Part shown: piece by piece, positions 2,581 to 44,857 of the stretch
How positions within the stretch are numbered: the first letter of the stretch is position 1
Layout: each line of letters begins with the position of its first letter
Assembly: GCA_964106915.2 (NCBI GenBank)
Contig: OZ066917.1
DNA: 64,000 nucleotides
Source of the DNA: Podarcis gaigeae
Lineage: Eukaryota
Reading direction: 5' to 3' (one strand)
Made by a program: the position numbers and the translations under genes
The notes under the pieces: generated by a model
Database searches by the model: none
Seen by the model: only the letters and a program-made list of their open reading frames with translations
What the model was told of the DNA's origin: nothing

Positions 2581-2830
2581 CTAGATCCAGTGTCACATCA
2601 TACAGCTTGCTTCATCCTGTCTTAATGTTCTCTGGCTACAAATATCAAGGATCCTCAATGGGATACTTCAAGAGCTGTTCCCTGGTTTCTTTTCTTCAAA
2701 AGTGAAGAGTTGAAAGTTGCTCAGTTTAGAAGTGGGAAAGAGAGGCGGTTGGAAACATCTGCTTATCTTGCTACTGTTGAATAACTCCTCTATTTGTCTT
2801 GTTTTTGTTTCCTTCATACTTGTCCACCAG

Positions 2831-2910
2831 GGATTGGAATTGCCCTGGCAGCTGCAGTGAAGGGCTATCGCTGCATCATTGTAATGCCAGAGAAAATGAG
2901 CATGGAGAAG
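2831..2910 (+). CDS. CBSL: CBS-like coding exon ([27 protein letters not shown])
   Basis: ccaccag| acceptor, |gtgaga donor, 80 bp as in human CBS. Confidence 0.95.
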
Positions 2911-5900: not shown

Positions 5901-6013
5901 TTATTTTGCCGTGGATACTGTTCTTATTGTCAGTGGACCATTAATTAAGGTTGCATAGGAGCAGAGCTATGCATTTTGGAGCTTGGGGAAAGGTATGCTG
6001 TCTGATTGATTGA

Positions 6014-6057
<44 letters not shown>

Positions 6058-9000
6058 CTCCCACTGCAGGCAAAGTTGATATGTTTGTGGCTGGAGCTGG
6101 AACAGGAGGCAGCATCTCTGGAATTGCCAGAAAGTTGAAAGAGAAATGTCCTGAATGCAAAGTAAGTGAAAAGGCTTGTTTGGCTTCGCTCAGACATCCA
6201 GCCCCATGGGAACATCATTCATGCCACCAGGGCCTGGGGAGGCGGTCCAACACAAGCCAACTTTTTGCTTCAGCAAGGAGATTGTACGGACATCCATTTG
6301 ATTCCCCAAGTGTGCCAGACTCTTTCTGCTCCTGAAGAAGTTGTGAATACCAGATGCACACAGCTAAATTCTTATGCGCAGTCACCATGCTCTCACACCG
6401 TAGCATTTACATGTGCCCCTGAAACCTAAGCCTCATCCTGACCAGGCAAGTGCAGTTTCCCATTTGCTTGACGGTTCCAAGGGCGGGATACTCATTTTTG
6501 TGTGAAGTTGTTGGTTGCTCCTTTAAATATTTTTTAATTAATTTGTTAATTTTCCTTCACAGATTGTTGGAGTGGATCCTGATGGTTCCATTGTGGCCCT
6601 GCCCAGCTCACTGAACACAATATCAGCAGAGGATACCACAATGGAGGTGGAAGGGATTGGACATGACTTTATCCCAACTGTCCTTGACAGATCTGTAAGT
6701 GGCAGCGTGACGAAGATCAGGAGATAGAGAGATGTCACTTGACTCTGAATGAAAACTTTCAGAATCACATGAAGTGCATTAAAAGTTGCTAAGGGTGGTT
6801 GATTCATTGACTATGTACATGGCAGCTGCTTAAGACAAGGCCATTTCCCACAGCTGCATTTCAAGTCACATTTGCACATTGCTGTTCACTCTAGCCCTGC
6901 AGATGTTTTGAGACTACAATTCCCATCATCCTGGACCCCTGGTCCTGTTAGCTAGGGATGATGGGAATTGTAGTTCCAAAACATCTGGAGGGCCGGAGTT
7001 TGCCTATGCCTGCACTAGAGTCTTCCCCATGCCGGCACCCTCTATTCATGAAGTTGTCATCCACTCATGGGCTGTCATCTGTATATGAGCAACAGCTGTC
7101 TAAAATGTACACATTTCAGCTTAACTGTGAAGTGAATGTAGCTTACATTTTCAAATTAAAAGGAAGTTGATTCGAGAAAAAGCACATCAAAGTGCAGTAT
7201 TTCTCAAGAAATTGCAGGATAGATACGGATTCTGGCTAATTTCATGTGCAAATGGCTTCCAATACTAGCAGTGGAAGCCCACTGGAACCAGAGTTGAATG
7301 GTAGCAATGTCCACGGCCCTAGTACTCATTATCATCCAGCAAAAGCCATAGGAGAGACTCTGCTGCAGCATCTCATATAACCTTTAATCATAAATTGAAG
7401 GGAAATGGCCTGAAATTGATTAAAACAGCAGTGTACTAACACTGCAACCAGACGGTGATGATAGGCAACATTGCGGTGCTTTTTAAAAGCTGTCTGATCC
7501 TGTCCACGTTTACTCAGAAGTAAATTTCACTGGCTTTGATGGGACTTAATCTCAAGTATGTGCATTGGATTGCAGCCTAGCTGAAAATGCTTTGAGCTGA
7601 AAATGCTTTGAGGCATACTTCTGAAAATATTTTTGTCCCGCTGATAACAAACATTTTCCAGGGCTGCAAGTGAGACTGTATTTGTATATCCTACCTTATC
7701 TTTGAAAAGTTTAGGAAAGTTAAAAACAGGTATAGCTAAGCTTACTGAAAGGGAAAAAAATGATCCTCTTTGAAACTGCCCTCAACTCTGAAGAATCTGT
7801 TGGATCTCTGCCATTACGTGTAGCAGAAGTGCAGGACCCAAAGGCCCCTGAAATCTTAAAACTCCATATTTTGTTTCTTTTCTAGGTGATAGATCAATGG
7901 TGCAAGAGCAATGACAAGGAATCATTTCTTATGGCACGAAGACTGATTAGAGAGGAGGGCTTGCTCTGTGGTAAGCATTGCTGAAGATCCATTGTTTAAA
8001 TCATACCCTTCGCAAATGGCAAATGACTTCTTGGAAAGCATTGTTCAGAGTCTGAGCATAAAGGTTACCCAAGGAACCAATTAATAGTCTGATTTAAGGG
8101 CCCTTTCACACAATCCTTATTTTCATGCCGTAAGTATACAGTTGCTAATCATTTACTTGTGTAGAATCCACGTCTTTCCTTGAAGTAGTGTTGTGCAGAT
8201 ATTGTATTTTGAGCACTCAGAACTCTGTGTGCAAAAGCAACATAACCACCCTCTGTCTGTCTCTCCAACACACATGTCCAGTGCTTTTTTTCTTAAAAAA
8301 ATGTTTAGGGGTACTCTCATTTTTACTCAAGAAAATCACCATTTTATAGTTCAAATCAGGAAAAATAAATACAGTAAATGGACAAAAATACAAAGATTCA
8401 CAAAATATTTAGGGGTATGCATACCCCTGCGTCCCCGTCCCCCCCCAGAAAAAGCACTGCGCATATCTGTTGCTATGCCTTCTGAGCACAGCATGGAATC
8501 TGGTTGCATGGAAGGTCAAAGGTCTCTGTTGAATAGTACATGGGGCATCTTTACTACTGAGTTGCCACGCACCTCCCCCACACCATGCAATTTTTGTGGT
8601 AGTTTAAAATGCTCTGCTTTATTTTCTGTTATTTTTGTTGTTGCCATTTTAAAAGCTAAGCTAGATTAGGGGTGAGCAGAAGGCAGATCAGGATCTGCTG
8701 CAATGCCTTCAGACGTGCATTTGTTGAACAATCGGAACAACAATGATCGGGCTCTCTCAACACACACCCTTGCCCAGTATTTTGCAATCTATGGGCCACG
8801 GTGCCGCTGGACGAAGGTGTACTTTTTGGGCACGGAATGGGGTGAAGTGGATTTTGTGTGACACTATTGAACTCATCTCTGGTGCCGAAAACAGAAGGGG
8901 ACCCAGTTCCTTAATTCTTGGTGTATGATCTCCACCTCTGCCTCCCCCACCTATCCCCCCCCCCAACTCCAGTTGGTGAATCTTGGGGTTCAAATAAAAA

Positions 9001-12000
9001 AAACAACAACAGAGTAGATTCTGCAAGTTTGGTATCTGCTCACCTCTCATTTATACCTCTGTAGAAGTAGCTATACACAACTTAGAACTCTACTGTCTAA
9101 GAAAGACATTTATCCTTGATTTTTTTTTAAAAAAATGCAACAACAACACTGAACACTAGCAAGGCTGCGTTCTTGCATCAATGCCCCACCGTTGGCTCAG
9201 GAGGGCACCAAGTGGGAGATGGCTGTATCTAAATCATTGTTTAATTGTTGCTCATTGAGTAGTAATCTCTTTTTTTCCTGTGGCAGGGGGCAGCGCAGGC
9301 AGTGCCATGTCTGTGGCTGTGAAAGCTGCAAAGCATCTGAAAGAGGGCCAGCGCTGTGTTGTCCTCCTGCCTGACTCTGTAAGGAACTACATGTAAGAGA
9401 CAATGCCTTCTTTCATTTCTGCTCTCCTGTCTACAGAAGCCCATGGGTTGAAAACACTCAGACGTATGTGAGAGGAAGGATCTGTGAGGAAAGCAAAAGA
9501 ATGTGAGCTTGTTGCTCTCGTACCACATTAACAGCAGTGCGGAAACTGTCAACAAAGAAGCAGGAAGCGAGTTTTATGAGGGACTAATTCTGTTGATACC
9601 AGATACTTGTAAATCGCTAGACATAAAATTACTTTCAGTTCAGTGATGTGGAGGGGAATGAAAAAAGACAACTCCTGTTATTGTTACATTATCGCATGGA
9701 TAGTGTTATGAAAGTTTTATAGCTCTCAGCGGAAGAAACAGAAGTCTTGCAAGTCATATCACCTGTTACGGATTTTAGTATATGGTTCACACCCAGCCCA
9801 AGTTTTTCTAGAATGACTCTTGGGACCTTTGCACACTTATCATTTCTAGTGGTCTAGTTGTGTATGTGTGCGGATTGTTTTTGGCATGCTGCCACATGAC
9901 GCTGGCATCATTCAACTTGTATTCCAGCATAATGAACTCCAAAAACCCGCTTTTCCTTCTACCACAAAAACCATGACATTTGTGAAAGATTCAGAATAGA
10001 TACTCAGTATTTTCATTGGTGTGTTGTTTGTACAAGCATAGTCCCTGTTTCTGTGTGGAGGGATTGTGAGTTGGTGGGTATGGTTTGGGGGACATCTATT
10101 TTGTACCACATTCCTCTGACCTGTGGAAGATATCAGTTTGAAAACTCAGTTCAGAGGAAAGATATAGGCAGCTAGAGGCTATGGTACTGAGTCAAAGTAC
10201 TGCCAATGACAGCATGCATTATAAGATGCAGACAAAACTTCATCACAATATCCAGGTCTGCCATAGCTCTGGCAGGCATGCAGTTCCTCTTTTAATATCC
10301 TATAATCCGACAAGATTAGAATTCTGGAATGCTAGGCACTTTGTACACACAGAAAAAGCTGCAAAAGGAATACCCTCATGCGGAGGCTCATAACTCTGAC
10401 GTTTATTGGCTGGAGGACCATAAGGGGTGTGACTAAGGCCACAGAACATTTCTCCATTGGGGCACAACCTGCCATTCATGTGGGAAGGAAAACCCACACT
10501 CACTCTATAATAACAGCGACAGGTGACCAAAGCTGCAGGCAAATGCCTACAAATTCACTCTTAAAAATGGCAGATCAAACAGCAACTATGTCACTATTAA
10601 TGGCAAGTGCGGAAAGTCCCTTAATGTTCAACTCAGGGCTACTTAAAGACATTCTATGAGTACCTGAAGGTTAGGCTAGTCCTGTAATGGAAGCTTGGAT
10701 GAAACATCAAAGTCTGACACAAGGTCTCGGTCTTTCTTAATTATCTCTAGGTCTAAATTTTTGAATGACAAATGGATGGTCAAGAATGGATTTCTAAAAG
10801 AAGATGTGGAAGAGCATCATCCTTGGTATGGCTCAGAGTCACTACACTTGTTAATTTTGCCTGACATAAAGTAAAAGTAATCTGAATGGCGGGGCAGGAG
10901 AAAGCAAAGACTGTTTGTTTGTACCAGTGATAAAAAGATGCCTTAATGCTTTCACTTTTTGTTGATGAAATCCAGATGCGCTCAGGAGGAGTGCATCTAA
11001 ACTGATCTTCTGGTTGAAGCAGGTGTGTGTGAGTGGTGGGATCACAGACTGCAACTAATCCTTTTTGATCCATCATGATTTGCATGACACGCTCTGTCTA
11101 ATTCTCTTCTGTGCTTTGCCATGCAGCATGCACAAGGACAGGTGTATTATGAAACATAAGGATAGTCGGGCTGGCAAATATTTTTGTCCCAGTGTTACAT
11201 CCTTGTAGATGGGACCATGTTGGAAAACGTCGGGCCTGGCTCCAGATTCTGGAGGCGCTGGACACAGTATTCCTCTCCAGTGCCCTAGTGCCTGCCATGT
11301 GAGCCCCCACAGGCATTGTGGTACCTGCCAGCCTCTCCCTTGTGTTCATTTGTGGGCGTACGTGGCGGTGGCACTGTAATAAGCCGGGAGCAGAGCTGCT
11401 GCCCAAGTAAGTGAGTCCATTTCTGAGCATCAAGGGTGATGCAGTAATGGGCTAGGAGCCAAGAGATTGTACTAAGTGAGTTAGTGTGTATGTAAGCAGA
11501 AGGAGGGAGACTGGGGTGGTGGATAAAAGCTAGGCATCAGTCCCAGTGAGCCCTGCCAGTGGGACCTGGCAAATGCCCCACTATGCCAGGTACTGGGCCT
11601 GGAAAATATAGGAATCAGTCCTAGATAGTTTGCTGAGCTGCAAAGCATTTCCTTAAGTCCTTTCAAAATTTTTGTGTGTGTGTGTATAATACACTGAGCA
11701 GACTGCTGCGGTTTAACACCACTTGCTGTCCTTCCTGTCCCCCCCCCCCCTTGTGATAGGTGGTGGACTATCAAGGTGCAGAAGCTAAGCCTCTTAGCCC
11801 CTCTGACTCTCCTCCCAGATGTGAACTGTCAAAAGGCCATTGAAATCCTTCGTGAGAAGGCATATGACCAGGCACCAGTTGTTGCAGAATCAGGGTAAGT
11901 CTCTTATTCGCTGAAGCCTCATTCTAACAGTCTTCAGGAGAATTCCACAATTCTCACTGTATAAAGCACTAATGAGAAACAGCCTATCACTGACATACTT

Positions 12001-13548
12001 ACTGAAATCTTTAAAGAAATACTTGGCGTAATATGGGCCTTAGCTAATCTATTGCAAGGACAGTGCCTACGCATGAAGGATTCCTGTAGGCTTAGCAGCA
12101 GGCATTGCTGCTTTGTACTTTGGCAAGGAGACAAAGCATCAAACTCCTCCTCTGTCTGCGCCACCCTCCCCACACAGCTGGCATAGGGAATCCCCAATCA
12201 AGAGCTATGTCACATCCGCTTTGGTTCTTATAGTCAAAGGACCTAGAACTCTCATTGGTGGTGTGCTATTGAAAAGCTTCCTTTGAGAGTTTGTGACTTT
12301 TGGAGCATTTTCAAAGAGCCCAGTTACGTTAAGTATTGGCCTGCCACCAGTGAGGCTGAATAGAAGGGGCATTGGTACTGGTCTAATTCTAAAAGTGGCA
12401 GCCTTGCATGCCACTGAGTGAACTCCCCACCCCACCTATCTTGTTCTGTGTCTTCTCTGTATATGCATGAACTGCTGGAGCTCTCATCTCTGTGTTGTGA
12501 AAATTCAACTGCATTCATTTTGCTTTTTTTAAAAAACCAAACAACTGTGTGTTTTCTTGAAGACTCATCTTGGGAATGGTAACTCTGAGCAACATCCTCT
12601 CCTCCGTCCTGGCAGGAACTGCCCAGTTCTCAGACCCAGTGATGAAGGTCATGTATCAGCAGTTTTCCAAGGTAATGTATGCCCAGTACCTGTTTTGGAG
12701 TTGCTGCCTAGGGCAAAGGATGAGGATCAGAGATACATGAAATAAGAGCGAATGCTGAGGTAGAAAGGACCCCAAGGATCATCTAGAGCAACCCCCTGCA
12801 ATACAGGAATCTTTTGCCCAACATGGTGCTTGAACCCATGACCCTGAGATTAAGAGTCCCATGCTCTACCAACTAAGCTAAGGAGGCTGATTTCAAAACA
12901 CTGGAGATGCCAGGGAGTGAACCCGGGATAGGTAGGTTCAAGTAGGTTGTCGTCTTGAGATCTTGCCTCATTTAAGATGGTTCTGTTGCTACAGCACTAT
13001 AGGACAGGAATAGGGATCTGGTGACCTTTTGGATGTTTCTAGACTACAGCTATCATCCCTGACCATTGGCTATGCTGGCTGGGGCTGGTGGGAGTTGGAG
13101 TCCATCCACATCTGGAGAACCACGGGCTCCCCAGCCTTCCATAGAGGAAGTAACATAGAAGCAGGATCCTTCATGCCAAGACACTGCTGGAACATCTTTT
13201 CTTCCCCAAGAAAACTGAGGTGGGGTGGAGGTCATCTAAGCACAACCTCAGAGGGAACAAGGTGTACTTGACATGGAATGTCCATCTCATACCTTACATC
13301 TTCCATGTGGTTCCAGCAGTATGTCACTACTTTATGTGGGACTTTATGTAAACTGGGCCCTAGATGTCTAGTAACAATTTGATTCACTTTATGTTTGGGA
13401 CTTTATTACAGATTAGCCTGGATGATACCCTTGGAAAGCTTTCACACATCCTGGAAAATGATCATTTTGCTATTGTTGTGCATGAGCTGGAACAATGTAA
13501 GTAGCTTTTCTAGTAAAAATAATAAAATGGCATATTACTTATTGTGTG

Positions 13549-13593
<45 letters not shown>

Positions 13594-14555
13594 AGATGAC
13601 CTAATATGCCCTTCGGGCATAGATATACATGAAAGGCATCACATGTATGTATTAGTATATTAGTTTACTATTTGTTAATTTATTGCATTTATAGCCCAGC
13701 TTTTTTCCAAGGAGCTCAAGGTAGCATTGTAGACATCTGCAAAGGAAAGCCTATACGTCTGGCTTTCCTTTACAGACATCCATGCCTAATATGTGGACAC
13801 TGGATGGGATGACACCTGGGGCGGACTGCACCTACCGCACCCCCCTTTCTCTGCCAGTGCATGTGGCACCTCTGGGGGGGAAAGCCCTGAACATAGCCAC
13901 TGTGGCTAGTAGCCTTTTCTTCTGAGAATTTGTCTAAGCCTCTTTTAAAGGCATCCTAGCTGGTGGCCATCAATCCTTCCATACTTTAACTGTGACCTGT
14001 GTGAATAAGTACTTCCTTTTGCATGTCCTGAATCTTCCAGCATTCAGCTTCATTTCATGGCATGGTGAAGGAGGGAGGAAAACTTCTATCTGTCCATCTT
14101 CTCTATGTGCATAATTGGACAGTGGTATGAAGGAAAAAGTTCCCAGATGCCACAAATAAAGATAACATTTCCTTGTGGGCAGGGCTTTTCTTTAGGGGGA
14201 ACTCTCAGTTCTGGCACCTCTCAGGTGGGCGCCATTGCCATTCTAAGAGAACGAGGGAGGTGTTCATGGTGAGATACAGTGCCTCTTTTTCTAGAAAAAT
14301 AGCACTGCTTGTGGGTTTCCTTGGATGCTATACTGGAAGCATCAACAGTATGTAATCTTCCTTCATTTATGTCTTCTTCCAGACAATGCAGATGGCAGCT
14401 CCTTCATGAAACAGATGGTATTTGGTGTGGTCACAGCTGTTGATCTTCTCAGCTTTGTCACCCCCAAAAACAAGACCCAGGAACGAAGAGATGTGACACT
14501 GGAATCAAATTCTTCTGAAAGAATTTTCCCCATGGCAGAATCTGTGGAGAAATAG
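2831..14555 (+). CDS. CBSL: Cystathionine beta-synthase-like protein (divergent CBS paralogue, probable sauropsid cysteine lyase); 5'-partial, 12 coding exons in window
   Basis: GT-AG exons 2831-2910, 3959-4090, 4727-4796, 6070-6161, 6563-6694, 7886-7970, 9287-9392, 10751-10825, 11760-11894, 12563-12671, 13412-13496 and 14383-14555 join in one frame. They align to human CBS from G151 to the C-terminus with the same intron positions and phases. The heme and PLP-lysine exons lie upstream of the window. CBS family assignment is secure; paralogue identity is inferred. Confidence 0.93.
3959..4090 (+). CDS. CBSL: CBS-like coding exon ([44 protein letters not shown])
   Basis: ctccag| ... |gtaata; 132 bp, one codon shorter than human. 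Confidence 0.95.
4727..4796 (+). CDS. CBSL: CBS-like coding exon ([23 protein letters not shown])
   Basis: polypyrimidine tract, caatag| ... |gtataa; 70 bp. Confidence 0.95.
6003..6056 (+). repeat. (GATT)n microsatellite adjoining a CBS-like splice acceptor
   Basis: Direct reading. Confidence 0.95.
6070..6161 (+). CDS. CBSL: CBS-like coding exon ([31 protein letters not shown]), PLP phosphate loop and CXXC
   Basis: ctgcag| ... |gtaagt; 92 bp. Confidence 0.95.
6563..6694 (+). CDS. CBSL: CBS-like coding exon ([44 protein letters not shown])
   Basis: tcacag| ... |gtaagt; 132 bp, two codons longer than human. Confidence 0.95.
7886..7970 (+). CDS. CBSL: CBS-like coding exon ([28 protein letters not shown])
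   Basis: ttctag| ... |gtaagc; 85 bp. Confidence 0.95.
8279..8459. mobile_element. hAT-type MITE (CAGTGCTTTTT TIRs)
   Basis: TIRs; inverted relative at 46304-46446. Confidence 0.75.
9287..9392 (+). CDS. CBSL: CBS-like coding exon ([36 protein letters not shown])
   Basis: tggcag| ... |gtaaga; 106 bp. Confidence 0.95.
10751..10825 (+). CDS. CBSL: CBS-like coding exon ([25 protein letters not shown]), interdomain linker
   Basis: ctctag| ... |gtatgg; 75 bp. Confidence 0.93.
11760..11894 (+). CDS. CBSL: CBS-like coding exon ([45 protein letters not shown]), CBS domain 1
   Basis: tgatag| ... |gtaagt; 135 bp. Confidence 0.93.
12563..12671 (+). CDS. CBSL: CBS-like coding exon ([36 protein letters not shown])
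   Basis: ttgaag| ... |gtaatg; 109 bp. Confidence 0.93.
12745..12880 (-). mobile_element. tRNA(Lys-CTT)-derived SINE with CR1-like 3' tail
   Basis: - strand TAGCTTAGTTGGTAGAGCATGGGACTCTTAATCTCAGGGTCATGGGTTCAAGC followed by CR1 3'-like sequence. Confidence 0.75.
13412..13496 (+). CDS. CBSL: CBS-like coding exon ([28 protein letters not shown]), CBS domain 2
   Basis: ttacag| ... |gtaagt; 85 bp. Confidence 0.93.
13552..13589 (+). repeat. (CA)n microsatellite
   Basis: Direct reading. Confidence 0.95.
14180..14307. mobile_element. hAT-type MITE
   Basis: CAGGGCTTTT...AATAGCACTG ends; 8-bp TSD CTTGTGGG. Confidence 0.85.
14383..14555 (+). CDS. CBSL: CBS-like last coding exon ([57 protein letters not shown])
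   Basis: ttccag| acceptor; [13 protein letters not shown] motif; TAG at 14553-14555. Confidence 0.92.
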
Positions 14556-14952
14556 TAGAAGACCTTTAAGTATAAGGGTCTGATTTTGTTTTCAAGTATG
14601 GCTTTCTATTTTAGAATTAGCATTTTATTTAGTATAGTATTATACTAGTATCTAGTATTTCTATTTTAATTTGCCTAGCTGTTCTTGGTCTGCTATGTTC
14701 ATAGCTATGCTCATCCTAAATGCCACCAAGAGAAATAATTTGGGATCAGGATGATTGGACAAGATTACATACAGTTAAAATAAGTAGCTATTCTGTGATA
14801 GCATGTTAAAAAAAATTAAGATTCTTGGGAGGAAGCAGTAGACTAAATGGATTCTCCTGTAAGGTTGCCTTGTTGCCTTGATTTTTATCAGACATTTTGT
14901 TGTTTGCATTAACATTGACTGGTAAGTGCATTTCAAAATCTGCTGGCAGAGC

Positions 14953-14958
14953 AATAAA
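14953..14958 (+). terminator. Candidate polyadenylation signal of the CBS-like gene
   Basis: AATAAA about 400 nt after the stop codon. Confidence 0.4.
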
Positions 14959-17210
14959 GAAATACTACAGATGCAAAGGCTGCCTGACTTGATTGTAGAA
15001 CTGACAATAATACTCTTTGCTTGTACAAGGGAAGTGTGAACTGGGACTGTACAGATGGATGAATGTTCATAAACCCCCTTTCCCCCAGAGAAAGCCTTCC
15101 TGCTGTTATGGTTGACTGCTGGAAGTGTATACTGCTACAACTCACTGCTGCATCAACCTCTTAGAACATTCTTGGCCACGAAAGGTTCCTGGGCATAGGA
15201 GACCATGTGCATGCCAATGGTTCCTACTTCTAAGAATCTGACAGTCATAGAACTGCCATAGCGGGGGGGGGGGGGCTTAAGGAGATCTGATTCTGCTACA
15301 GATAAACACAGCTACATGTTGATGACTTCTGTAGCCTACCTCTGAATATCAGTTTGGGGAAATACACACAGTCACGATAGGTGAGTCCCAAGGGCCAGAT
15401 ACAGATACTTGGATGACCACATTTGCTCCCCTGGTCTGAGGTTCCTCATTCCTGCCTTAAAAGAACTACCTATGAAGCACAATAGCGACTAGATTACTTC
15501 AATCTAGACCCCAAAATTAGTTGCAATTAAGTCCCATTGAGAGTAATTTCTATCTGCCTTCACATCAAATGGAAATCTGAAAGCTTTATAATTACATTTA
15601 ATTGACCTTTTTTGCAACCCAAGGTGTTATATTTGGTTCATAATGGTAACTCCCCCGCCCCCCATATAGCAGAAAACGGAACAGATGATTTTAATTCTGC
15701 AGAAGTTCATAAAGCAGAGCAGTAAACAGTAGACTTGCACTCTTAAGTGCATAAGCATCAGAACTACTTAGCTATATAATGTCAGTCTCCAATGTAGCTT
15801 TCTGTCTTTGAGTAGACTGGAGAAACGGGGGCCGTGATCTACTTCCCGTTGCTCAGTCCACCTTTTTGTGAAGTTGAGGAACTTCCTTTAGCAGAAAGAA
15901 GGCTGAATTCAACAGCTATACTGGCCATTGATTGTGCACCTTTTCACCTGCCATTTGTCTGTACCTTTTTCCTTTTTTGGTATGTAGTTTCTCCTAACCA
16001 AGCACTTACCTTGTGAACAAAGATGGAGGTTTAAGGTGCTCTGAACAAGCTGCTGTGCATGTGTCAGCCAGCATTAGATCCCACTGCAAGGAGAAAAGGT
16101 TCACCCACGAAGAACTCAAACCACATGTGAGGTTTATAACTGGATTCCACTGTAGATTGGTTGGGGATGGGGAATGACTGGTCCATACAAGTAAAGAGGC
16201 CAGTTGTCAACACTATATGCACATACCTATACAATGCTGACTCGGGAACCTACCACAGAGTAGATATGGGTACACTCTCCCCTCCATCTCTCAGTATGGG
16301 CAGAAATGCTTATCTGCATCTTGTATGCCACCGCATGGGTTTTACTCCATGTGAAAGTAGTTGTATAAAACATCCATTTGCACGCATACATCTCTGGACT
16401 GAGCCCACCAATGGACTGTTCCAGTGTAAACATTTCCCATGCATGAAAATTCAGATATTTTAAAATGAGGGTCACTGAATGCTGCTCATGTGGATGCTGT
16501 TTACAGCAAAATGGCACTACATATTTTTGCCTGGCTAGACAATCAAGACTTCTCAGAAGTTGGCATGCTTATGAATGTGATTCACAGACGTGGCAGAAAT
16601 TTATGCAATCATTTTAATGGGAGCTTTAACTACGTCTCTAAGTACGCACATGAAAATCGGTGGGATCGCTGACAGAGTGCTCCTTACAATGGTAGCGACA
16701 CCACAATAGCCAGGTTAATTAGAAAGGCCTTTTGTATTGCTGGCTGTACACAAACTAAATATAATTACACGTGTTCATTCATTGTGCAATATGTGAACAT
16801 ATATTCCCTTTTGTGTTTTTAAAAATCCTGGCTCTTATTTTCACCAGATATCCTGTTAATTTTTTATTCCAATGTATTAACAGTTCAATACTCACCAACA
16901 CATTCCTCTCACAGAGCTACAGGTCCCAGAGCTTTCTGGGAAGAGAGATTGACTGTTAAACCACTTTGAGAATTGCAGCTCTATGAGGGTAATAGTGGTC
17001 TTTGAAGAACTCTCAGCACGCTTAACAAACTTCTATTCCCAAGATTCTTTGGGGAAAGCCATGACTGTTTAAAGTGGGACTGTACAGCTTAAATGTATCG
17101 TGTAGACTTGTCTAGGCTCAAAGAGTTTCTTCATAGGCTAAACCAGACAGTATAAGAGGAATCACATAAGGAAAATGGGATGAAAGTATAGATGGTGGGT
17201 TTGTCATGTA

Positions 17211-17464
17211 CAGGGGTCAGCAAACTTTTTCAGCAGGGGGCCAGTCCACTGTCCCCCAGACCTTGTGGGAGGCCGGACTATACTTTTTTTTTGGGGGGGG
17301 GAGAACCAATTCCTATGCCCCACAAATAACCCTGAGATGTATTTTAAATAAAAGGACACATTCTACTCATGTAAAAACACATTGATTTCCAGACCGTCCG
17401 CAGGCCGGATTTAGAAGGCGATTGGGCCGGATCCAGCCCCTGGACCTTAGTTTGCCTACCCATG
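17211..17464. mobile_element. hAT-type MITE
   Basis: 8-bp TSD GTCATGTA; second family member at 54607-54850. Confidence 0.9.
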
Positions 17465-18549
17465 GTCATGTAGTTTGGCTGGATCAGAATCACCATGATT
17501 ATTATCAGAATTACTGCACGCTTCCTCAATGTCTGCTATTTGCAATGGGATCAATTGGAGCTTCCCTCCATTTTGAATAGAAGGCATTGGGGAGTGATTA
17601 CAACTGGGAGCATGGTGGGGCCAAAAGTTTAGAGGCTCCTTTCTTCATGCCACCGTCCAGGACAGCCTCACCTGCTCCACTGTGCAGAGCCAACTACCCG
17701 ACAAACGCCACGTCTTGCTTGACCCAAGGTCATGAGACAAGCTCATTTCTCATCCAGGCAATCTTTTGTGATTCAACCCAATCACAGGAAAGGGGCAAAT
17801 GTTAACTAGATAAGGGAAGGGCATGGTGTGAGGTTTGCAGTTAAAACAGGAACATGCTTAGCAGGTAGAAGCAGATTTTAAGCAGGTTAGCCTACATTTT
17901 TCCTGTGAGGTAAAAAATGAAAAAGTCATTGCTGCCTTGTTGTCTGGCAATTATTGCCCATTCTAAACAGTGGACTGACGTGTAATTCCACGTGTACAAA
18001 ATGTTAAAATGTTGCTGTGGAATGGCAGGCTATTCTGAAGAAGATAAATGCCAGTGCATTTGTAATGTGCCAACCTGCATCTTGCCTCATCCCTTGCTGC
18101 TCAGTAAGCAACAGTGACCCAGCTGCCAGGAACCAACCAAAGCAGCTCCATGCCACCCATTGAGCCACTTCCACCCCCTCCCCCGATAAAATGAGGGTAG
18201 CAAAACCTACTTCTTAATCAAGGCGATTATATAGATTATATGGGTAAAAAAATGGAGACAAGATAAAGCAAATTTTGACATGCTTGGCAAGGGTTTAAGG
18301 AACTATGGAATAGTAAACAAGGGACAATTAACTACAGTCCTGTATAGTTACAGGATGTACTTACATTAAATTTAAGACGCTTTCTTATATAGATAGAGAG
18401 GATCCCAGCTGTTAGAATGCAAATTGTAAATTATTTCTGCTTTGACAATAAATAATACTATAATAAAAGACCCACTGGTAATAAATTAGAAAGGGCTCTT
18501 AGCTCCTCCCAGCTGTTCAGGTTTATGGGTTTTCCCTCTGTTGTGACAT

Positions 18550-18557
18550 TATAAATA
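18550..18557 (+). promoter_or_regulatory. TATA box of the fibulin-2-Na-like gene
   Basis: TATAAATA about 90 nt upstream of a CAG|GTAAAC donor, which leaves a ~65-nt ATG-free first exon. Confidence 0.65.
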
Positions 18558-18579
18558 GCATACCTTCCAGCTGAACAGC

Positions 18580-18645
18580 TACTGAGGAAATATCACTACC
18601 TGGAGACCAAACCACTTGCAACACCCACACCTGAAGCCTATCCAG
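18580..18645 (+). other. Predicted non-coding exon 1 of the fibulin-2-Na-like gene (intron 18646-19643)
   Basis: Starts about 30 nt after the TATA box; ends at ccag|gtaaac; matching acceptor tttgcatttgatccag| at 19643. Confidence 0.6.
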
Positions 18646-18836
18646 GTAAACTAAAGCTATTTCCCCTTTTCATAGATCAGCTAAGCATTTGACCCAATGC
18701 ATGGAATAAAGTTAGAAATAATATTATTATTATTATCATGGAATAAAGTTAGAAATGCTTACTGCATCTGAAGGACAGTTTGCTGTTTTTAAGAAATAGA
18801 AAGAGCTGCACAAGGTCCTTCCTTCCTTCTGCAGTA

Positions 18837-19075
18837 CAGTGGTACCTCGGGTTAAGTACTTAATATGTTCCGAAGGTCTGTTCTTAACCTGAAACTGTTC
18901 TCAACCTGAAGCATCACTTTAGCTAATGGGGCCTCCTGCTGCTGCGCCGCCGGAGCACGATTTCTGTTCTCATCCTGAAGCAAAGTTCTTAACCCAAGGT
19001 ACTATTTCTGGGTTAGTGGAGTCTGTAACCTGAAGCGTATGTAACCTGAAGCGTATGTAACCTGAGGTACCACTG
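18837..19075. mobile_element. Tigger/pogo-type MITE in intron 1 of the fibulin-2-Na-like gene
   Basis: TIRs CAGTGGTACCTC / GAGGTACCACTG, TA TSD; second copy at 62504-62738. Confidence 0.9.
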
Positions 19076-19149
19076 TAATAGGTTTTTAACAGAATGTTAC
19101 CAATTTTTAGCACTCCTCAAATTTTATGAAGCTAAGGTTTGGAAATTTA

Positions 19150-19308
19150 NNNNNNNNNNNNNNNNNNNNNNNNNNNNNNNNNNNNNNNNNNNNNNNNNNN
19201 NNNNNNNNNNNNNNNNNNNNNNNNNNNNNNNNNNNNNNNNNNNNNNNNNNNNNNNNNNNNNNNNNNNNNNNNNNNNNNNNNNNNNNNNNNNNNNNNNNNN
19301 NNNNNNNN
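19150..19308. other. Assembly gap (N run)
   Basis: 159 N. Confidence 1.
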
Positions 19309-19647
19309 AAGGGGTTGTAAGTGGCACTTCCTTGTGCAAGTGGTCCGAGTATCATCGGAGACTGGAGAAGGCAACTATCAGGAGCAGTATGTTGCTTTGA
19401 AGGCAATCCATTGGGAAGTGTACCCTGAGCTCCAGTGTGGCTGATTCAGTGAGCCAATCCGCAATGTGCTATGTAATCAGTGTTTGTGCCCCTGGTGTGA
19501 GAAAATGCTATGCAAATTGGTGTTCTACTGAGAGAGGGCATTAGCTCAGTATTTAAAAAGGCAAAGTTGGGCGAGATAATAGAAAGCAATGAATGAGCAA
19601 AAATTGCTCTGCTGCTAAAAGGACCTCTTTGCATTTGATCCAGAGTA

Positions 19648-20157
19648 ATGAAGCCTAAGCACTTCCTCTGCCTGCTGCTGAGCTGCTGCTTCCTACAAAA
19701 TGGTGGCTGCATGCATCACAGGCCAGACTGTACTGCTGTTCTCTGCCTAGCTTGTCCTGACAATCACGAAGCTGTGACCCGTAAGGACCAGTGCTGTCCA
19801 CGCTGCATCCCTCGGTGCAAGTGCCCTGCGTTTCTGGAGGAAGCTTGTATCCAGGAAGGCTACAAAGATGGCTTCCTTCTCCTGGGACAGTCTGTCATTA
19901 CTGACTTTGGGACCCGAAAGTGCACCTGTGGAGAAGATCATAACATTGTCTGCGCTTCCACTTGCCCTAAGATTTCTCCAGCTTGCAAGTATATAGGAAG
20001 ACCCCAGGATGGCTGTGGAATGTGCGCTTGTCCCACTGATGATGAAAACTTTGTACCTGCTGGTGAAGTCATTGAAAGAGAATGTAAAATTTGTAAGTGT
20101 CCCCCAAATGGGGGGCAGCTTCAGTGTACCTTAACCCCTAAATGCTCGCTAGGGTAA
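19648..20157 (+). CDS. Secreted cysteine-rich protein, 169 aa: signal peptide plus a stand-alone fibulin-2 N-terminal (Na, VWC-like) module (fibulin-2-like, not the FBLN2 orthologue)
   Basis: Intact ORF with a basic/hydrophobic signal peptide (MKPKHFLCLLLSCCFLQNGGC). The 22 Cys of the mature part are colinear with the 22 Cys of fibulin-2 Na. Shared motifs: DCTxVxC, CCxxC, GQSxxxDFGxxxCxC, CxxCxCPxxGGxLxC. Splice acceptor 4 nt before the ATG; purine at -3. Confidence 0.88.
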   Translation: MKPKHFLCLLLSCCFLQNGGCMHHRPDCTAVLCLACPDNHEAVTRKDQCCPRCIPRCKCPAFLEEACIQEGYKDGFLLLGQSVITDFGTRKCTCGEDHNIVCASTCPKISPACKYIGRPQDGCGMCACPTDDENFVPAGEVIERECKICKCPPNGGQLQCTLTPKCSLG

Positions 20158-20364
20158 AAAGTGCCCTGTATCATGGGAGCTGGGTGGTGGTAGTTCCATA
20201 GCATCCTGGTCTTTTAGGGAATACAGTAGTAGAATTTTAGCTTTGAGAGGGACCTTGAGGGTCATCTAGTTCAGAGCCAGAATCTTAAAGCTACATCAGC
20301 TCTCATGGATGCCACTGAACTTTTCCTAAGAATTAAACAGTTACATAATCTATGGTATTATTTT

Positions 20365-20382
20365 AATAAAAATAATAATAAA
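20365..20382 (+). terminator. Polyadenylation signals of the fibulin-2-Na-like gene
   Basis: Two AATAAA (20365-20370, 20377-20382) about 210 nt after the stop. Confidence 0.6.
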
Positions 20383-21548
20383 GATTGGAGTTGAAATATG
20401 TTTGGATCCTTACTTAAATCATTATTTGGTTGAGGCAAATATGGGAAATGCTTGGAATTTTGAAAAATAACTGTGATAATAATGGTTAATAACATATTAT
20501 ATGCATAAATGAGGAAACTTTGGCATACCCAAATGGGATGCAATGGCTAAGTGGCGCCATTAATTGGCTTTCTGTAAAAGCAAACATGGCAAGGTTTTAT
20601 GGTTTGGGATATTTTGGTGTGTTTTTTGCAATTGTTGTTATGCCCCAACCCAGTGAGGGGAGTCATAACTAGTATGTATTCTCACTCTTCACATTATCTA
20701 CAAAAGTACAGTGTATAAATTGCTTGGGTATAATGAATAAAGGGAAGTTCTTCTCCCTCTGTCAAAAATACTAGAACTTGGCAGCAAATGAAATTTCATT
20801 GTCTGGGGATTCTGAAGCAGCAAAAACATGTCTCCGCACAACACAGAATTCATTTATGCAATTCATTCGTAAACGTTGTAGTGATTATCATTAGCTTAAA
20901 GGGCATTAGAAGCGGATTAAACAAATTTGTGGAAGACTTCTCTATCAACAACTGTTTTGAATAATGCTAAATGGGGTCCTTACGTTAGGGATGGGGCACC
21001 TGTGGCCCCCCAGATGCTACAGAAGTCCATCTCCTAGTGGCCAGGACACTCAAGAGTTGGTTGCATTTCATATATGCTAAAGTGAACAGCGAAGCAATCA
21101 GCATTACAGTGGCACCTAGAGACAGTAAGCAAGTATGAAATCACTGACAAAGGGGGACAGCACATCACCACCCATGCATTCCATACACTGAGAAAACGCC
21201 AGGAAGAGAACCCCCAAATGCTTGGGGGCAAGATATCCATGAACAGAACTGCAAAAAAGCAGCTGCACATATTGAATGCATGCACTCATCTTAAAGCTGC
21301 TGCTTTAACAAAATGAACAAAATGGGTTCATAGCAACAAGAAAGACTACAATTCCCCCCCCCCCCTTTTGGTTTCCAATATGGGCTGCTCTTGGCTAACT
21401 GGATTGTTTTTATTACAATACAAGGGGAACTCTGCCGCCCTGCTCTTATATACTCTTATGCTCTTATATATACTGCACTTATATACTCCTCTCCCTGACA
21501 ATCCCTCCACAAGAGACTTGCTTGCTGAATCAAGAAATCATCCCAGCG

Positions 21549-29101: not shown

Positions 29102-29313
29102 CTATTGCAGAGAATCACTGTTATCCAAGACCAGCCCACTGATGTTTGTGGTTGAGAGGTCTGCTCCATCATCTTCAGTGCTGTCCACAGATTCATCCTC
29201 ACTTTGCCCTGCCATCATGACTTGTTGAACAGCCAAAGTAGTACCATCAGACGAAAGAGATTGCAGACTGTCTACATTCATGTTGACTGGGGCTGTAATT
29301 GTTACAACTGCTC
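29102..29313 (-). CDS. PKNOX1: PKNOX1 last coding exon (GAVVTITAPVNMN...DNSDSLQ*)
   Basis: 212 bp to TAG. Confidence 0.96.
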
Positions 29314-30625
29314 CTGAGAATGGGGAGGAAAAACAAGGGTCCAGTTGGAACAACAATTCAATTCTTTTACAAAATCCACAGTTCTTAGTCTGAAAAACCT
29401 ATTAATGAAAGCCAAAGATCTAAAAATTAAAAGTGAATGAAAGTTGAATAAGCTATTTGAATTATCTTTCCCCATACAAGTAATTTTGAAAAAGTTTTAG
29501 TCTACACTATTGAGATTTCTGAGTTTTGAGCATCTTGGAACACATTTCTCATTTATCTTAATAAACAGTAGGTTTGTACTTTTAAAATTGGGCAGCCAAT
29601 GAAAAGCAATCCCAAAGCTGTTAACTTTTAAGGCTACAATTCTATATACAATTCCTTGAGGACAAGCCCCAGTGAACAAAGTGGAACTTGCTTCTGAATA
29701 AACATGTGTGAGGCTGAAAGTGTGTACCAGACACAGGCATGTTTAACCACATTGAGCCATTACAGACCTTTGTTTATATGAATGGAGGGCAAAATAATTC
29801 AATTTGGCACATGGATCATGTGATCCATGAAGAACTGCTGCTATGCTAAGGTCATGTTCCTAATTGCCTGATCAGTGCTGATGGAGGGAGCTACAGCTGG
29901 GTAGAGGTGTCCATCTACTTGGCTCTGGTGGGCTCCACTGGCTGCAGAGACATATGCTGAAAGCATAGCTGATTGGGCAGTTACCTCCAGCAGTATTCCC
30001 ACTGCCCAAACAGGGTGCTCCAGTGCTGAAGCAGGGCTGGGGATGAATCTGATGGATCCTCAGCAGGCCAACTGCCAGAAAAGAGGCCCAATTCAGACCC
30101 ACCCCCTGCTGCACCAGCCTGGAGCTGGCACGGCAGAAGAGGAAACTGGCCCCCAACTGGTCTGCCTTCAACAGTGTGAGCAGCAGTGCTTCAAGTTGGG
30201 GGTTAGAATTGCTCTGAAATCCATTTACGTCAAGGGATTATGTTTACTAGAGAGATTGCACCCCTTTCATTCATACAAACTGTTTGCAAAATTGTCTGAC
30301 AGGCTCAGGAGAGTCTCTAAAACATCCAGTTTGCAAAGAGTAAATAAATAAATAAAGCTGAGGAATCTGCTCACCGTCTGACATTGTAAGTTCATTTGAT
30401 TGATGCTGAGCTACTCCTGATGCAATGGAGTCTGGCCAGAACCTTTGAACTGGTCGGTTTTGAGCTGTTTTCTTCTTTGTTTTTGGAGTTTCAGAACAGC
30501 TGGAGTCCAACATTGGCTGAAGAATTCGTCTTCTAGCATTGATAAACCTAAAATGACCAAAAATTAATCTTATGAAGACATCCATAAAATCAGATTCTCT
30601 ATACCCAAGCCCAGTGCTGAGCAGG

Positions 30626-30663
<38 letters not shown>

Positions 30664-33600
30664 ACTGATACAAAGGGAGTATGATTCTGCTGCCTTTGGG
30701 TGTGGTAGAGAGTTCCCTGCAGGGAGCTTTCTGGCATACTGAAATTCAGTGCTTAGCAGAATCGCCTCCACACAACATTAGTCAATGTGAAGGGAGGGTG
30801 ATTCTGCTTGGTCCGGGTGCTCCTTGTTTCTCCTGTCCTGTCAAAGGAGAGGAGTGGGGAAACAATCACTTTGCCAGCCCTTTGTTCGGATCTTCCCAAA
30901 GCACAGAACATGGGCCTGATAAAGTGGTACCAAAATGCAAGTCCTGCACAAGGGATTCTCAGAGCTGGGCAAGACAACACACCTGGTCAATCATGTGGCA
31001 TACTCACTTGTGAAGGATGATTCCAGTAAGGATCTGACCCATGACCACCTTTGTCCTACATCAATCCCGTCCAGTTTTAGCTTTACATAGCAGCCCAAAG
31101 GAAAATGCTATATATTTCTATGTGACTTTTCAATATAGGTGAATTTTGTAACACAAAAAATGGCATATTCGTTGTTTCTTACCAGTTGTTAACCTGAAGT
31201 AATGTCAGATTGGTTTGTGCTGCTATCTGTTTTTTCTCATCCTCTGTTGGATATGGATGCTACAGACAGGAAGGGGGATGGAAAAGGTATAAAAACTTAC
31301 TTTTTGACTCTTAAAGATATGCAATAAGCACAATGCAAAAATCTGCAACCATAAAGCAAAAGGAATACAATTTAGTGTGGGATTAATTCTATGCTAATTA
31401 GATAATTTCTGACCAGATAAACTAATTTTTGACAACACACGTCACAATGATTTCATATGTGTAGATTGAAATTTTCATTGTTTTATGTAATATGTTGATT
31501 TTATGACACTGATTACAGATAATAATTTATTACTCTAATAATGAAAGCAACATTATTATTTAGACTCCTACTTCTGTGAACTTAAAATACTCACTGCTAT
31601 TACAAAAACCAACGCATTCTCATCCCTAGTACTCCAATTTCTAGTCTCTGGCGCTAGTTCCCAGAAAAAATTTATTCACAGGTAAGGAATTGAAAAAGAC
31701 TGCAAGGGAAAGGAAATCTACAATAACTTCAAGGATTCTGTCACCTGCAGGGATCTCCAAACTCTTTTTACTCTTTACTTAAAAAAAATAAAAAATTAGC
31801 CTCAATTTTTTGTTGCTATATTAAGTTTTATGAAATCATAAAATAAACTAGCCAGTTTCCCCCAGATGTAATGAATGTATTCCCCCCCCCCCGAATTCTC
31901 ACAGAAAATTTAAATTCCCTATCTTTTCAGCATATTAGCTGGCAGAGCAATCTTTGCTGATATCCCTGATCCATTGACAGTTACTGGCCCTGTTTAGGCA
32001 TAACTGATAAGACAATTAGTAATTGGGTGCAATATAAACTGAGATTATTAAAATGCTTAGCACAGTAACAGAAGAAGTAGATAGTAAACTGTCAAGCATT
32101 TATTATTTAAATGGATGCAATAAAAAACATTCCCTCCCAGGAAAAAAGAAGGCAAGTGCTAGCTTCAGAACATCTTTAACCTAGCTCTATGCAAATCTAA
32201 TATCCAGTGAAGTCATGAAACCTAAAAGAAAGCCAGAAAGGGCGTCAACATCAACGTTCAAATGTTAACCAGGTTGACCACTACATGATTTTTTAAAAAA
32301 GAATTAACAATATAACTTTATCCTTAAATGTCCATGTGGGGGAGGGGATTATTCTCTCAGCTGTCCTTGCTAGATGGCATGATCCTTTGGGAACACAGCA
32401 TGTGATAAAGCTGGATTTATCACATTGTGTCATATGGTAGGGATGAAATACCGTGTGGAGTTAAATAAAAGCATTACCAATTAAAAATCTACAAGAGAAA
32501 CATAGCTATTTCTAGTACTATCTATAATGTACTAAGTACAGTAATTCTAGTAATTTATCAGGAACTGTTAAGAAATAATACAGACCCATTTTTGTCTCCT
32601 TTTAGTATCATAAGATGTTATGCAGTACAGTTCAAAAGGGAATACTGGACCACATATTACATTTAGCCATGCAGAAAGTTCAAGCTATTTTAATACCTTT
32701 GGATGAAGCCACCAGCACTGGTAGCTTGTTACATATATTGCTCTATCTGCTAGAGCTGAAAATACTACTGCCTAAACAGTACAATTTGAGGGGATTGAGT
32801 ATAATAAATTTGATCACGAGTAGATGGACTGTGGAGCATTCCTGTTGAGCGTTCTTCCCCTACCTCCAAAAACATTCAGCCAAAGGGACTGAATTCTTTA
32901 CAAAAGTACATATAACATGCAAATTAAGAAGAAAACCTGTAAAAACGTTTGTCTGAGGCCCCTTTTGAGAGTGTGGAGTGCATTTAGTAAGGCAATCTGC
33001 ACAAAGAAACATGCTACTGTATTCTAGCCCCCTAGGAACTGTTCAGATTAACAGAGATATAAATATATCCCTCAAAGGACTACTGTTCAAGGGAGCACAG
33101 GATTAAAAAAAAATCCTCAGCATGATGTAATAAAACCAAAAATATCTATAAAATTTAATATCACAAGGTTATATAATAGACATCTACTGAATTTGAGCCT
33201 GATTCAACTCTAAATACCAAGTTAATATATTCTGAGTAGGTAGTTAAAAGCTTCAGATTTTGCCAAAACATATCCCCCTCATGCACATACCAGCAGAAAT
33301 GATCAGAACAGTAGTGATTCCCAAATCACTGTGATCAACCTTACCCCTATGTGCTGGAAAAGCCAAGACCTCATCACATTTGTAGCATGCTTTGGAAGAA
33401 CTCCTCTCTTATTTTTTGATGACCCGTCATCTTGATGCAAGATGCTTAAATCTTGGTTTAATTGTAACTGGAGCTGCACAGAGATTCAGAATTAGCAGGC
33501 AGTTAGTAACACACCATAATATTACCATGGTTTTTAAAATATTTCACTAAAAATGCTTATAATATAAAACAAACCTGTGAATTCTGGATCCTGATGGTTC

Positions 33601-42600: not shown

Positions 42601-43451
42601 GTCACTTCCACTGTAAAATCAGAAGTACTGTATACTGTAAAAAAGCCACTCTAGAATCACCTAGAAATTTGTTTATGGCCACATGCTGTGATATTTTCCT
42701 TAAAGTCAAGTGATACAACTAAACAAGTTAAAAAAGACAACATAACCTCATCAGGTGCCTAGACGCTTCTCCCCACCCCTACCTGTTATTTATTCAACAA
42801 AATAACCACTAACAGTCAAAATACCACATAGAGAAGTACAACATTATATGGGTGACAACCCAAGCAGCTAAACAAGTTCAAGTTTGATAGCAACGTTTAG
42901 GCAGTATTTCACAAAATAATTGTTTGTGTACATGTGTGCGAGAGAGGGGGGCTCAATGACAAAACAAAATAAATCCTGGTTCAGCAAGTTTAGAGCAGAA
43001 GCTCAGTGGCTGAACACATGCACTGCATGCAGAAGATCCCAGCACTGCCAGTTAAAAGCATCAGGTAACAAGTGATGGGAGCTATCTTTGTCCGACACCC
43101 TGGAGAGTTGTCTCAGTCATAACAGGCTGTACTGGGCCTATTCTGACATGCTCTGTGGTTTGCTCTCCCCAGGAACAGATGCCCAGAGTCTTCCTCATTA
43201 ATCTTTAGGCACCATGCTAAGTCCTTTTTCTTTATCCAGGTCTTTGGTTAATTAATGTTACCTCCTATGGTGATGCTTAGCTTTGAGTGGGATAGGTAGG
43301 ACTTGTCCTTATTAATATAATGCTAGATAAGCAATTTATGTATGCTTTGTATTGTTCATACTTTTATATTTTTTCTGGTTTTGAATTGCTTTCATGTATT
43401 TTACCTTGGCAAGTCACTTTGAGAATTTATCGTATAAAGCGACTGATAAAT

Positions 43452-43493
<42 letters not shown>

Positions 43494-43813: not shown

Positions 43814-44857
43814 GGTTACTTAGGGTTCTTATAAAGTCAAATCATCATACCTTAGGGGGGAAATCCAAAAAGGTTAGTATTTTTACAGTATTTTACAAAA
43901 TACATAACTGACATCTGCATGTGCAGCAGTAGAATAGGGGCAGAGGGGATCGAGAATGCAATCACATGTATTTGCTACACCAACCTAAAAGATCTCAGGA
44001 ATGTTCTCAAACCCTTTTTGACAAAAGCACTCAATCATATTTGCCAGAAAAAGTGATAAATGCAATATGGTTAAGCCACTTGATCTTGTTCTTTATTGCA
44101 ATGAAGAGTTTTACAACAAACGTGCAATTAAAATCACAAGTTAGTGGCACAAAATAAATGATCAAACTTTTATATATGAATATCATATAGTGGTTTTACT
44201 AGCAAAAATAAAAATGTCAAAAGGGAAATACGACAAAAGAATGCAAGACAATGAACAATGCAAACCCACTGTGAAAATTTTTGTTTTTCAAAATATTCCC
44301 TCTTAAGGAACATTTGATACTGGTCGCAGTCACAAGACCAGATGGCAAATACCCTGAAGTTAGATCTCTTTTTACATTTGGAGGTTATAAAGAAAGTTTA
44401 AAATCATCTAGTAGCTGCACTAAGGAACAATTATGATAATTTTAAAAACAAATGGAATCTCTCACACAGGACACACATATTTTTCGGTGGCTGCAACAAG
44501 GAATAGCAACTATAAAACTCCTGGCATTTCTCACATAGAACACATATAGCTTTCCTCATGTGTATATGCTACACAGAGGTGGTGTCTCTTTGTATGCCAA
44601 AGAGAGCATTGAGTCCAGCAAGCCAGAAATCCCAAAAGGGGCAGACTCCTCCACATCATCATTGTGGATATTACTAGGCCCCATTAAGAATTTGGTACAG
44701 TGAGCTGCTTCTTTTTTTTCATACACGTGTCGAGCAACTTTCCCTAATGTGATGCCCTACAGTGTTTCGGAGTACAGTGTTTTGGAGTACAACTGCTATC
44801 AGTCCCAGCCATCATGATCGGTGGTGAGGGATGATGAATGGGTGTTATAGTCTAAAG

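Follow-up and report, generated by a model that had tools for sequence, protein, structure and literature searches.

The window analyzed here is a 64,000-nucleotide stretch of the Podarcis gaigeae genome (assembly GCA_964106915.2, contig OZ066917.1), and our subject is a short gene on its plus strand, located between a cystathionine beta-synthase (CBS)-like gene and a PKNOX gene. The open reading frame (ORF) of this short gene is predicted to encode a secreted protein resembling a single subdomain, Na, of fibulin-2 (FBLN2). The gene comprises the following elements, where UTR denotes an untranslated region.

18550-18557, plus strand: TATA box TATAAATA of a CpG-poor promoter, a putative function assigned from its position
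18581-18645, plus strand: exon 1, non-coding and ATG-free, with a predicted start at the A at TATA+31
18646-19643, plus strand: 5' UTR intron (GT..AG) that spans 998 nt of the window, a run of N among them
19644-20400, plus strand: exon 2 in its short form, with a 4-nt leader, the whole ORF and the 3' UTR to the proximal poly(A) site (predicted end)
19648-20157, plus strand: ORF of 169 aa, with a predicted signal peptide (about residues 1-21) followed by a fibulin-2 Na-like domain with 22 cysteines
20365-20382, plus strand: tandem AATAAA, the likely proximal poly(A) signal
20736-20741, plus strand: third AATAAA, the likely distal poly(A) signal

The TATA box, ATG-free exon, donor, acceptor, ATG and tandem AATAAA all lie where the first-pass annotation had placed them. 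The TATA box was the only plus-strand match to TATAWAWR within 14500-19648, and the promoter region (18300-18800) has a GC content of 0.35 and an observed/expected CpG ratio of 0.07. CpG-poor TATA promoters are a class typical of tissue-restricted genes. No ATG occurs from 18558 to 18645; the donor CAG/GTAAAC directly after 18645 carries 7 of 9 consensus letters, and the acceptor, with the sequence TTTGATCCAG, ends at 19643. The ATG at 19648, 4 nt into exon 2, has a G at -3 and an A at +4, and the stop codon TAA occupies 20155-20157. The tandem AATAAA begins at 20365 and 20377, the first copy 208 nt past the stop. Taken alone, these layout motifs are weak and little above chance. A TATA-plus-donor pair occurred once in the window, yet also in 16 of 100 shuffles of the window, and the chance probability of an AATAAA within 300 nt is about 0.28. 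A genome search gave one match for the promoter and no detectable repeat origin, very common words being skipped.

We next considered contigs from sequencing runs presumed to be RNA and derived from related organisms; those of runs X1, X2 and X4 were about 96% identical to the window. X1 and X2 are from one sample, and the three runs together represent two samples from two studies. In the contigs of X1, X2 and X4, three of the four runs compared in the first set, exon 1 was joined to exon 2 at 18645/19644 (GT..AG), the very junction that the first-pass annotation had proposed; a real gene is thus spliced here from two exons, the first of them non-coding. The joint was reported as 18639 to 19638, which, with the cut moved by +6, equals 18645/19644: the hexamer ATCCAG ends both exon 1 (18640-18645) and the intron (19638-19643), a 6-nt direct repeat, so that the junction slides by 6 nt in alignments. 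The exon 1 portions of the spliced contigs were 35, 47 and 54 nt long and started at 18586-18605, 36-55 nt after the TATA box. None extended upstream of 18586, and the longest started at about 18586, 5 nt past the A at TATA+31; a start about 30 nt after the TATA box is compatible with these contig starts. The first-pass annotation had also raised the concern that the run of N might hide an extra exon or a false join. Since the intron is removed in the contigs of X1, X2 and X4, the sequences on either side of the run of N belong to one transcript, with no extra exon between them. Exon 1 and exon 2 each had a single match in the genome, which makes it improbable that the contigs stem from a processed DNA copy. 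Taken together, the transcription unit is real, and it is the splice joint, not the motifs, that makes the case; the layout of promoter and exons is itself ordinary.

Seven of the 16 presumed-RNA runs were compared, and the ORF was covered wholly in four of these and partially in three. Contig depths over the ORF ranged from 4 to 75 and lay up to tenfold apart between runs of one sample code. Contig depth cannot rank genes and is no measure of the high, tissue-restricted expression supposed in the first-pass annotation; the CpG-poor TATA promoter would fit such a gene. Unspliced pieces were present at lower depth in X3, X4 and X9. Promoter and exon 1 differed at 2 of 234 positions, as against 13 of 412 in exon 2 in X3 (p 0.10) and 20 of 567 in X2 (p 0.03), which is suggestive of lower divergence in promoter and exon 1 than in exon 2. 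In some relatives (P0065 and run X9), the intron holds an in-frame ATG at 19609, 13 codons upstream, which is a possible start for an unspliced transcript; the window has a stop codon in that frame.

The encoded protein is hydrophobic at residues 5-14 and has no later hydrophobic segment and no N-glycosylation site; the product is predicted to be secreted. All 22 cysteines lie past residue 21, and 21 of them are in register with FBLN2. A profile of the family aligned with FBLN2 Na over 151 columns (hhalign probability 99.7, E 7e-26), in keeping with the claim of the first-pass annotation that the ORF encodes a secretory, fibulin-2 Na-like product. The only other match of the ORF in the genome was the FBLN2 exon on contig C2 (E 1e-14), with 30% identity to this genome's FBLN2, and the nearest named protein was from Podarcis lilfordi (94% identity). 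Compared with X2, the ORF showed 10 non-synonymous and 9 synonymous changes, with a per-site ratio of the two (pN/pS) of 0.34-0.45 and P 0.018-0.07. Compared with X4, among the rows listed, it showed 10 and 12 (pN/pS 0.25-0.34, P 0.001-0.011). None of the changes against X2 or X4 touched a cysteine. By these comparisons, the ORF is under purifying selection.

Short proteins consisting only of Na were found in Podarcis, Phrynocephalus, Anolis, three sea turtles, 26 named birds, axolotl and Pleurodeles, mostly under the automatic RefSeq/GenBank label 'fibulin-2-like'. A phmmer search of 1.84 billion proteins returned 39 at E<=0.001; weak repeat matches aside, 33 of them were short relatives or FBLN2-type proteins. 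Among 934 candidates, 33 were short relatives. No named mammal, snake, crocodilian, frog or fish appeared among the short matches, in searches limited by word seeds, clustering and annotation.

In a phylogenetic tree, the short genes fell on one side of a branch and 22 FBLN2-type rows on the other (support 96/94, and 100/99 in a smaller set), and the tree of the short genes followed the species tree. Left out of the trees were near-identical duplicates, the weak Kunitz- and repeat-type matches P0037 and P0041, fragments of the P0028, P0042 and P0054 type, and the crow protein P0038, which has a shifted C-terminus. Approximately unbiased (AU) tests, in which long branches may attract one another, rejected a recent lizard-specific copy (p 1.3e-4), a separate bird copy (p 7.6e-6) and a separate amphibian copy (p 0.005). 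Independent of rates is a 3-residue deletion common to all 8 short rows examined, axolotl included, and found in 0 of 11 FBLN2 rows. Over all rows, the spacing at this deletion was short in 53 of 55 matched short rows, the other two being matched at another motif, and long in all 49 matched FBLN2 rows; 9 rows were unmatched. Nineteen columns were invariant in 30 sequences, 15 of them cysteines. Identity to the lizard short gene was 61% in Anolis, 48% in turtle, 40% in birds and 37% in axolotl, as compared with 79% between the FBLN2 Na of lizard and coelacanth. As judged from these trees, AU tests and alignments, the genes of lizards, turtles and birds form one fast-evolving family, which evolves much faster than its parent FBLN2 Na, and the salamander proteins probably belong to the same family. 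Where bird and turtle proteins extend upstream, their sequence changes one or two residues ahead of the start methionine, and some of these extensions resemble a translated polypyrimidine tract; we infer that sauropsids have conserved an acceptor immediately 5' of the ATG.

Some members are shorter. The squamate-like P0006, P0043 and P0044 stop at 127 aa and lack the last cysteine module, two of them also lacking a conserved cysteine, and the sea turtle models P0045-P0050 diverge after the same region. Loss of the last module is a possible case of decay or shortening in some lineages. Such truncated or degenerate forms, together with the borderline selection signal against X2, would fit a transcribed relic without function. 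The frame and the cysteine pattern are nevertheless intact across lizards and birds, as seen in the invariant columns, and the pN/pS against X4 is low (P 0.001-0.011), leaving a relic with a nearly negligible probability.

By its domains, the short protein departs clearly from its parent. Like the Na of fibulin-2, it consists of a signal peptide and a 22-cysteine domain encoded within one exon; the fibulin-2 Na subdomain is given 22 cysteines in PMC12456471, and the N region is called unique to fibulin-2 in a passage of one review (PMC6977632). It lacks the Nb, anaphylatoxin, EGF and C-terminal fibulin domains of fibulin-2. Its third cysteine is shifted in sauropsids, it carries the 3-residue and a further 1-residue deletion, its gene lies on another chromosome and evolves much faster, and it does not reach the Pfam family FIBL-2 (PF24532). 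The ORF had no match to FIBL-2, the axolotl protein scored 15.4 bits against a cut-off of 27, and this genome's FBLN2 scored 64.7; no Pfam family matched the ORF at E<=1. With respect to the features that define the fibulin family, the ORF has no tandem calcium-binding EGF repeats (coelacanth fibulin-2 shows EGF_CA) and no C-terminal fibulin-type module (domain III). As far as its sequence tells, the short protein is thus not a fibulin by family-defining domains, and is a homologue of one fibulin-2 domain. The tree and the shared deletions mark the short 'fibulin-2-like' proteins of birds, sea turtles, Anolis sagrei and axolotl as its orthologues; for the hornbill protein, the CBS neighbor does so too. 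These orthologues differ from it in that those of birds and axolotl lack cysteines 146 and 166 and the sea turtle models lack the last module. The joint absence of these two cysteines in birds and axolotl suggests that 146 and 166 form a disulfide pair.

We then asked from which copying event the short gene may have arisen. The first-pass annotation gave FBLN2 a putative non-coding exon 1 and, after it, one exon with the ATG, signal peptide and whole N domain. In this genome the FBLN2 frame indeed stays open for 446 codons, from the ATG through the signal peptide, Na and Nb as far as a predicted donor. The short gene lies on C8 and FBLN2 on C2. Across 40 kb of the FBLN2 locus, the only DNA similarity left was one repeat, and the 10 kb downstream of the short gene held no remnant of Nb or later domains, including the C-terminal fibulin module (only two matches, at E 0.023). 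In FBLN2, candidate acceptors predicted from sequence lie 3, 136, 143 and 239 nt before the ATG. Since the copied FBLN2 segment lies within one exon, loss of introns cannot serve as a test for retroposition, and the event is too old for a remnant poly(A) tract or target-site duplication to tell. With no introns in the parent segment, no surviving DNA similarity and retrogenes often gaining 5' exons, the copying at the DNA level that the first-pass annotation inferred is a probable route at most. As a rule, a retrocopy retains its 3' end and is missing the 5' end. For this reason, and given the candidate acceptor 3 nt before the FBLN2 ATG, we prefer a partial copy at the DNA level, which we hold to be the probable route, while a whole-gene copy that was later shortened seems quite unlikely.

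Alternatively, a truncated or later shortened FBLN2 mRNA may have been retroposed behind CBS, with the TATA promoter and the 5' non-coding exon acquired afterwards. The new chromosome and the single coding exon agree with this route, as do published retrogenes: 17 of 18 new introns lay in the 5' UTR in one study, untranslated exons were gained by 27 of 120 retrogenes in another, and a retrocopy without the C-terminal part of its parent has been described (passages of PMC3369469 and PMC3203146). Here, however, it is the 5' part that was kept, the reverse of the usual pattern, no remnant of Nb or later domains follows downstream, and an acceptor-like site, though a candidate only, also lies 3 nt before the FBLN2 ATG. 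Retroposition is therefore the less probable route, though one to be taken seriously.

The predicted structure bears on what the product might do. The AlphaFold model (predicted local distance difference test score 84) consists of small beta modules with the strand order of the parent Na model. A PDB sequence search with the family profile gave no match at E<=1. The top fold matches were VWC and fibronectin type I modules, the best being NELL2/NEL (Foldseek E 2e-4; Z 5.8 and root-mean-square deviation (rmsd) 6.2 over 77 residues). Beta-microseminoprotein (PSP94/MSMB), a small, disulfide-rich, fast-evolving secreted protein, gave weak fold matches (Z 3.3-3.5 over 36-70 residues), which lie within the background of small beta modules. 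No sequence similarity to it was found; it may illustrate a way of working and not kinship.

The main rival on function is a secreted modulator of bone morphogenetic protein (BMP) or TGF-beta signaling resembling brorin or chordin, whose tandem VWC-like modules would bind a growth factor and block or present it. Brorin (VWC2), brorin-like (VWC2L) and the chordin family are likewise small secreted proteins of VWC-type modules, and VWC-module proteins of this kind are described as binding BMPs in passages of PMC8377005. In the Atlas, the first match of the short protein was VWC2-like (0.90, 181 features), the nearest cluster; the VWC domains of CCN3 and collagen 2A were among the fold matches (Z 3.4), and FBLN2 Na itself has a match to Pfam VWC (PF00093) below the cut-off (23.4 vs 27.6). 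The ORF protein, however, had no Pfam VWC match, no chordin-family protein was found, as far as named, among the 39 phmmer matches, and there was thus no sequence-level match to this family. The quail orthologue reached only 0.88 in the Atlas, and the short family diverges fast, whereas BMP ligands are highly conserved. We predicted a complex with a BMP-family dimer of this genome (L016), which we take to be BMP4; the score was 0.37 and one control gave 0.22, values that speak neither for nor against binding. Weighing these points, we regard a brorin-like role as unlikely.

On either side of the short gene and within its non-coding parts lie further features.

2830-14555, plus strand: coding exons of the CBS-like gene
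29102-43819, minus strand: coding exons of the PKNOX gene (Pfam Meis_PKNOX_N, E 3e-23), presumably PKNOX1 rather than 2
18835-19077, strand not assigned: high-copy interspersed repeat in the intron, probably like a short interspersed nuclear element
20229-20274, strand not assigned: short repeat relic in the 3' UTR, to which many unrelated contigs align at this place only

Thousands of contigs per run aligned to the intronic repeat, an 88% copy of which lies upstream of FBLN2. The window CBS-like gene is one of two complete CBS-like genes in tandem on the plus strand, about 44 kb apart: the first spans L007-L009 (G000:C8, about 51.600-51.624 Mb), and the second runs from L011 into the window at 2830-14555. 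The window gene is the closer of the two to the hornbill CBS-like protein in most exons. Neither the interval between the two CBS-like genes nor the rest of the genome yielded a second Na-only copy.

The short gene lies on the same strand as CBS, 4 kb past its stop. The hornbill gene model P0117 fuses CBS to an Na-like domain, which places the same CBS neighbor beside the short gene in birds; the fusion itself is probably an annotation error, and such models may hide the short gene in other genomes. The shared strand, the fused model and low-depth contigs between the two genes in X1-X3 would also suit an ORF that is merely the terminal exon of CBS read-through transcripts, with no promoter of its own. 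But the spliced contigs of three runs start within exon 1 with no link upstream, and the ORF has a signal peptide of its own, which would be senseless behind a cytosolic enzyme. Moreover, the fusion is a single match among 6328 longer candidates in an automatic prediction. Just 5' of the TATA box, one ATTAAA and three AATAAA lie within 18365-18485, the three AATAAA at 18447-18480; this cluster might stop CBS read-through or might be mere AT-rich promoter, and the three AATAAA also count against read-through. We consider a read-through exon very improbable.

The 3' end of the short gene agreed only in part with the first-pass annotation, which had ended the unit at the tandem AATAAA. The exon 2 contig of X9, from another organism, spans 19643-20390 and ends just past this signal, and a T-rich stretch lies downstream of the proximal poly(A) site. 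The contig of X4 reads through the signal to 20721, about 350 nt further, and a piece of X2 spans 20657-20770, around the AATAAA at 20736. The alignment rows shown held no poly(A) tail, and the contigs are unstranded. Alternative polyadenylation with two ends is the likely and simplest reading. At 20199, the window is 14 nt short in the 3' UTR; contigs of six runs, representing three related organisms, have these nucleotides. X8 gave a low-depth contig downstream of the gene, at 20984-21300 and beyond.

Altogether, the locus holds an independent gene of two exons, and we consider the following picture of it probable. Its one coding exon encodes an Na-only protein, predicted to be secreted and rich in disulfides, which likely serves as a free binding module outside the cell, in the secretion or the matrix of some specialised tissue. 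Transcription would start about 31 nt past the TATA box, and the CpG-poor TATA promoter would drive a short mRNA ending at either of two poly(A) sites. The signal peptide would be cut after Cys21, leaving 148 residues whose 22 cysteines could form 11 disulfides in small beta modules of the VWC or fibronectin type I kind. Without the EGF, anaphylatoxin and C-terminal fibulin domains, which dimerise or anchor fibulin-2, the product may diffuse and bind an extracellular partner rather than join fibulin fibres. Because the family diverges fast around a fixed cysteine scaffold, this partner is suggested to be adapted to each lineage and not a highly conserved ligand. The front of FBLN2 would have been copied to behind CBS a single time, no later than in the ancestor of sauropsids and probably already before the amphibian-amniote split, and would then have evolved much faster than its parent.

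Several observations weigh against this picture. The evidence of expression consists of contigs from related organisms, from which start, end, strand and level are unreadable, and unspliced pieces exist, the intron contig of X9 having about half the depth of the exon contig. Secretion is argued from the hydrophobic N-terminus and homology, selection against X2 alone is borderline, and the fold matches are weak even at their best. As to age, the axolotl protein scores alike on the short gene and FBLN2 (58.4 vs 58.1 bits) and sits on a very long branch, its probable family link being one by sequence, and attachment of the family to tetrapod, amniote or squamate FBLN2 is indistinguishable (p 0.18-0.22). 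Further, the last module is gone in the sea turtle and 127-aa forms, and part of the domain is therefore dispensable in some lineages.

We found no study of the short gene in the literature searched, which did not cover supplements, where the gene may be listed under a LOC number. An eggshell review (PMC8144736) does not mention it, and the fibulin passages of PMC5488037 concern fibulin-1-like fragments. The reviews searched do not describe the job of the fibulin-2 Na subdomain. The gene is old and already in databases under the automatic name 'fibulin-2-like', and what makes it of interest is not its promoter or exon layout but an unstudied, old, predicted secreted protein without a mammalian match in our searches.

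The amphibian-amniote split took place more than 300 million years ago. In a bolder and rather speculative reading, the short gene would be a tetrapod gene older than this, kept in lizards, turtles, birds and salamanders and lost in mammals. The Na head would be secreted on its own, as a factor expressed from a separate TATA promoter, possibly a new extracellular modulator of BMP/TGF-beta signaling or of matrix assembly in secretions of the egg, skin or glands; if so, Na would be an autonomous ligand-binding module. The short gene offers a clear example of how one exon that encodes one domain can become a new gene. As a natural protein made of Na only, which has lasted hundreds of millions of years and occurs in chicken-like birds and axolotl, its product would give a direct handle on the Na domain.

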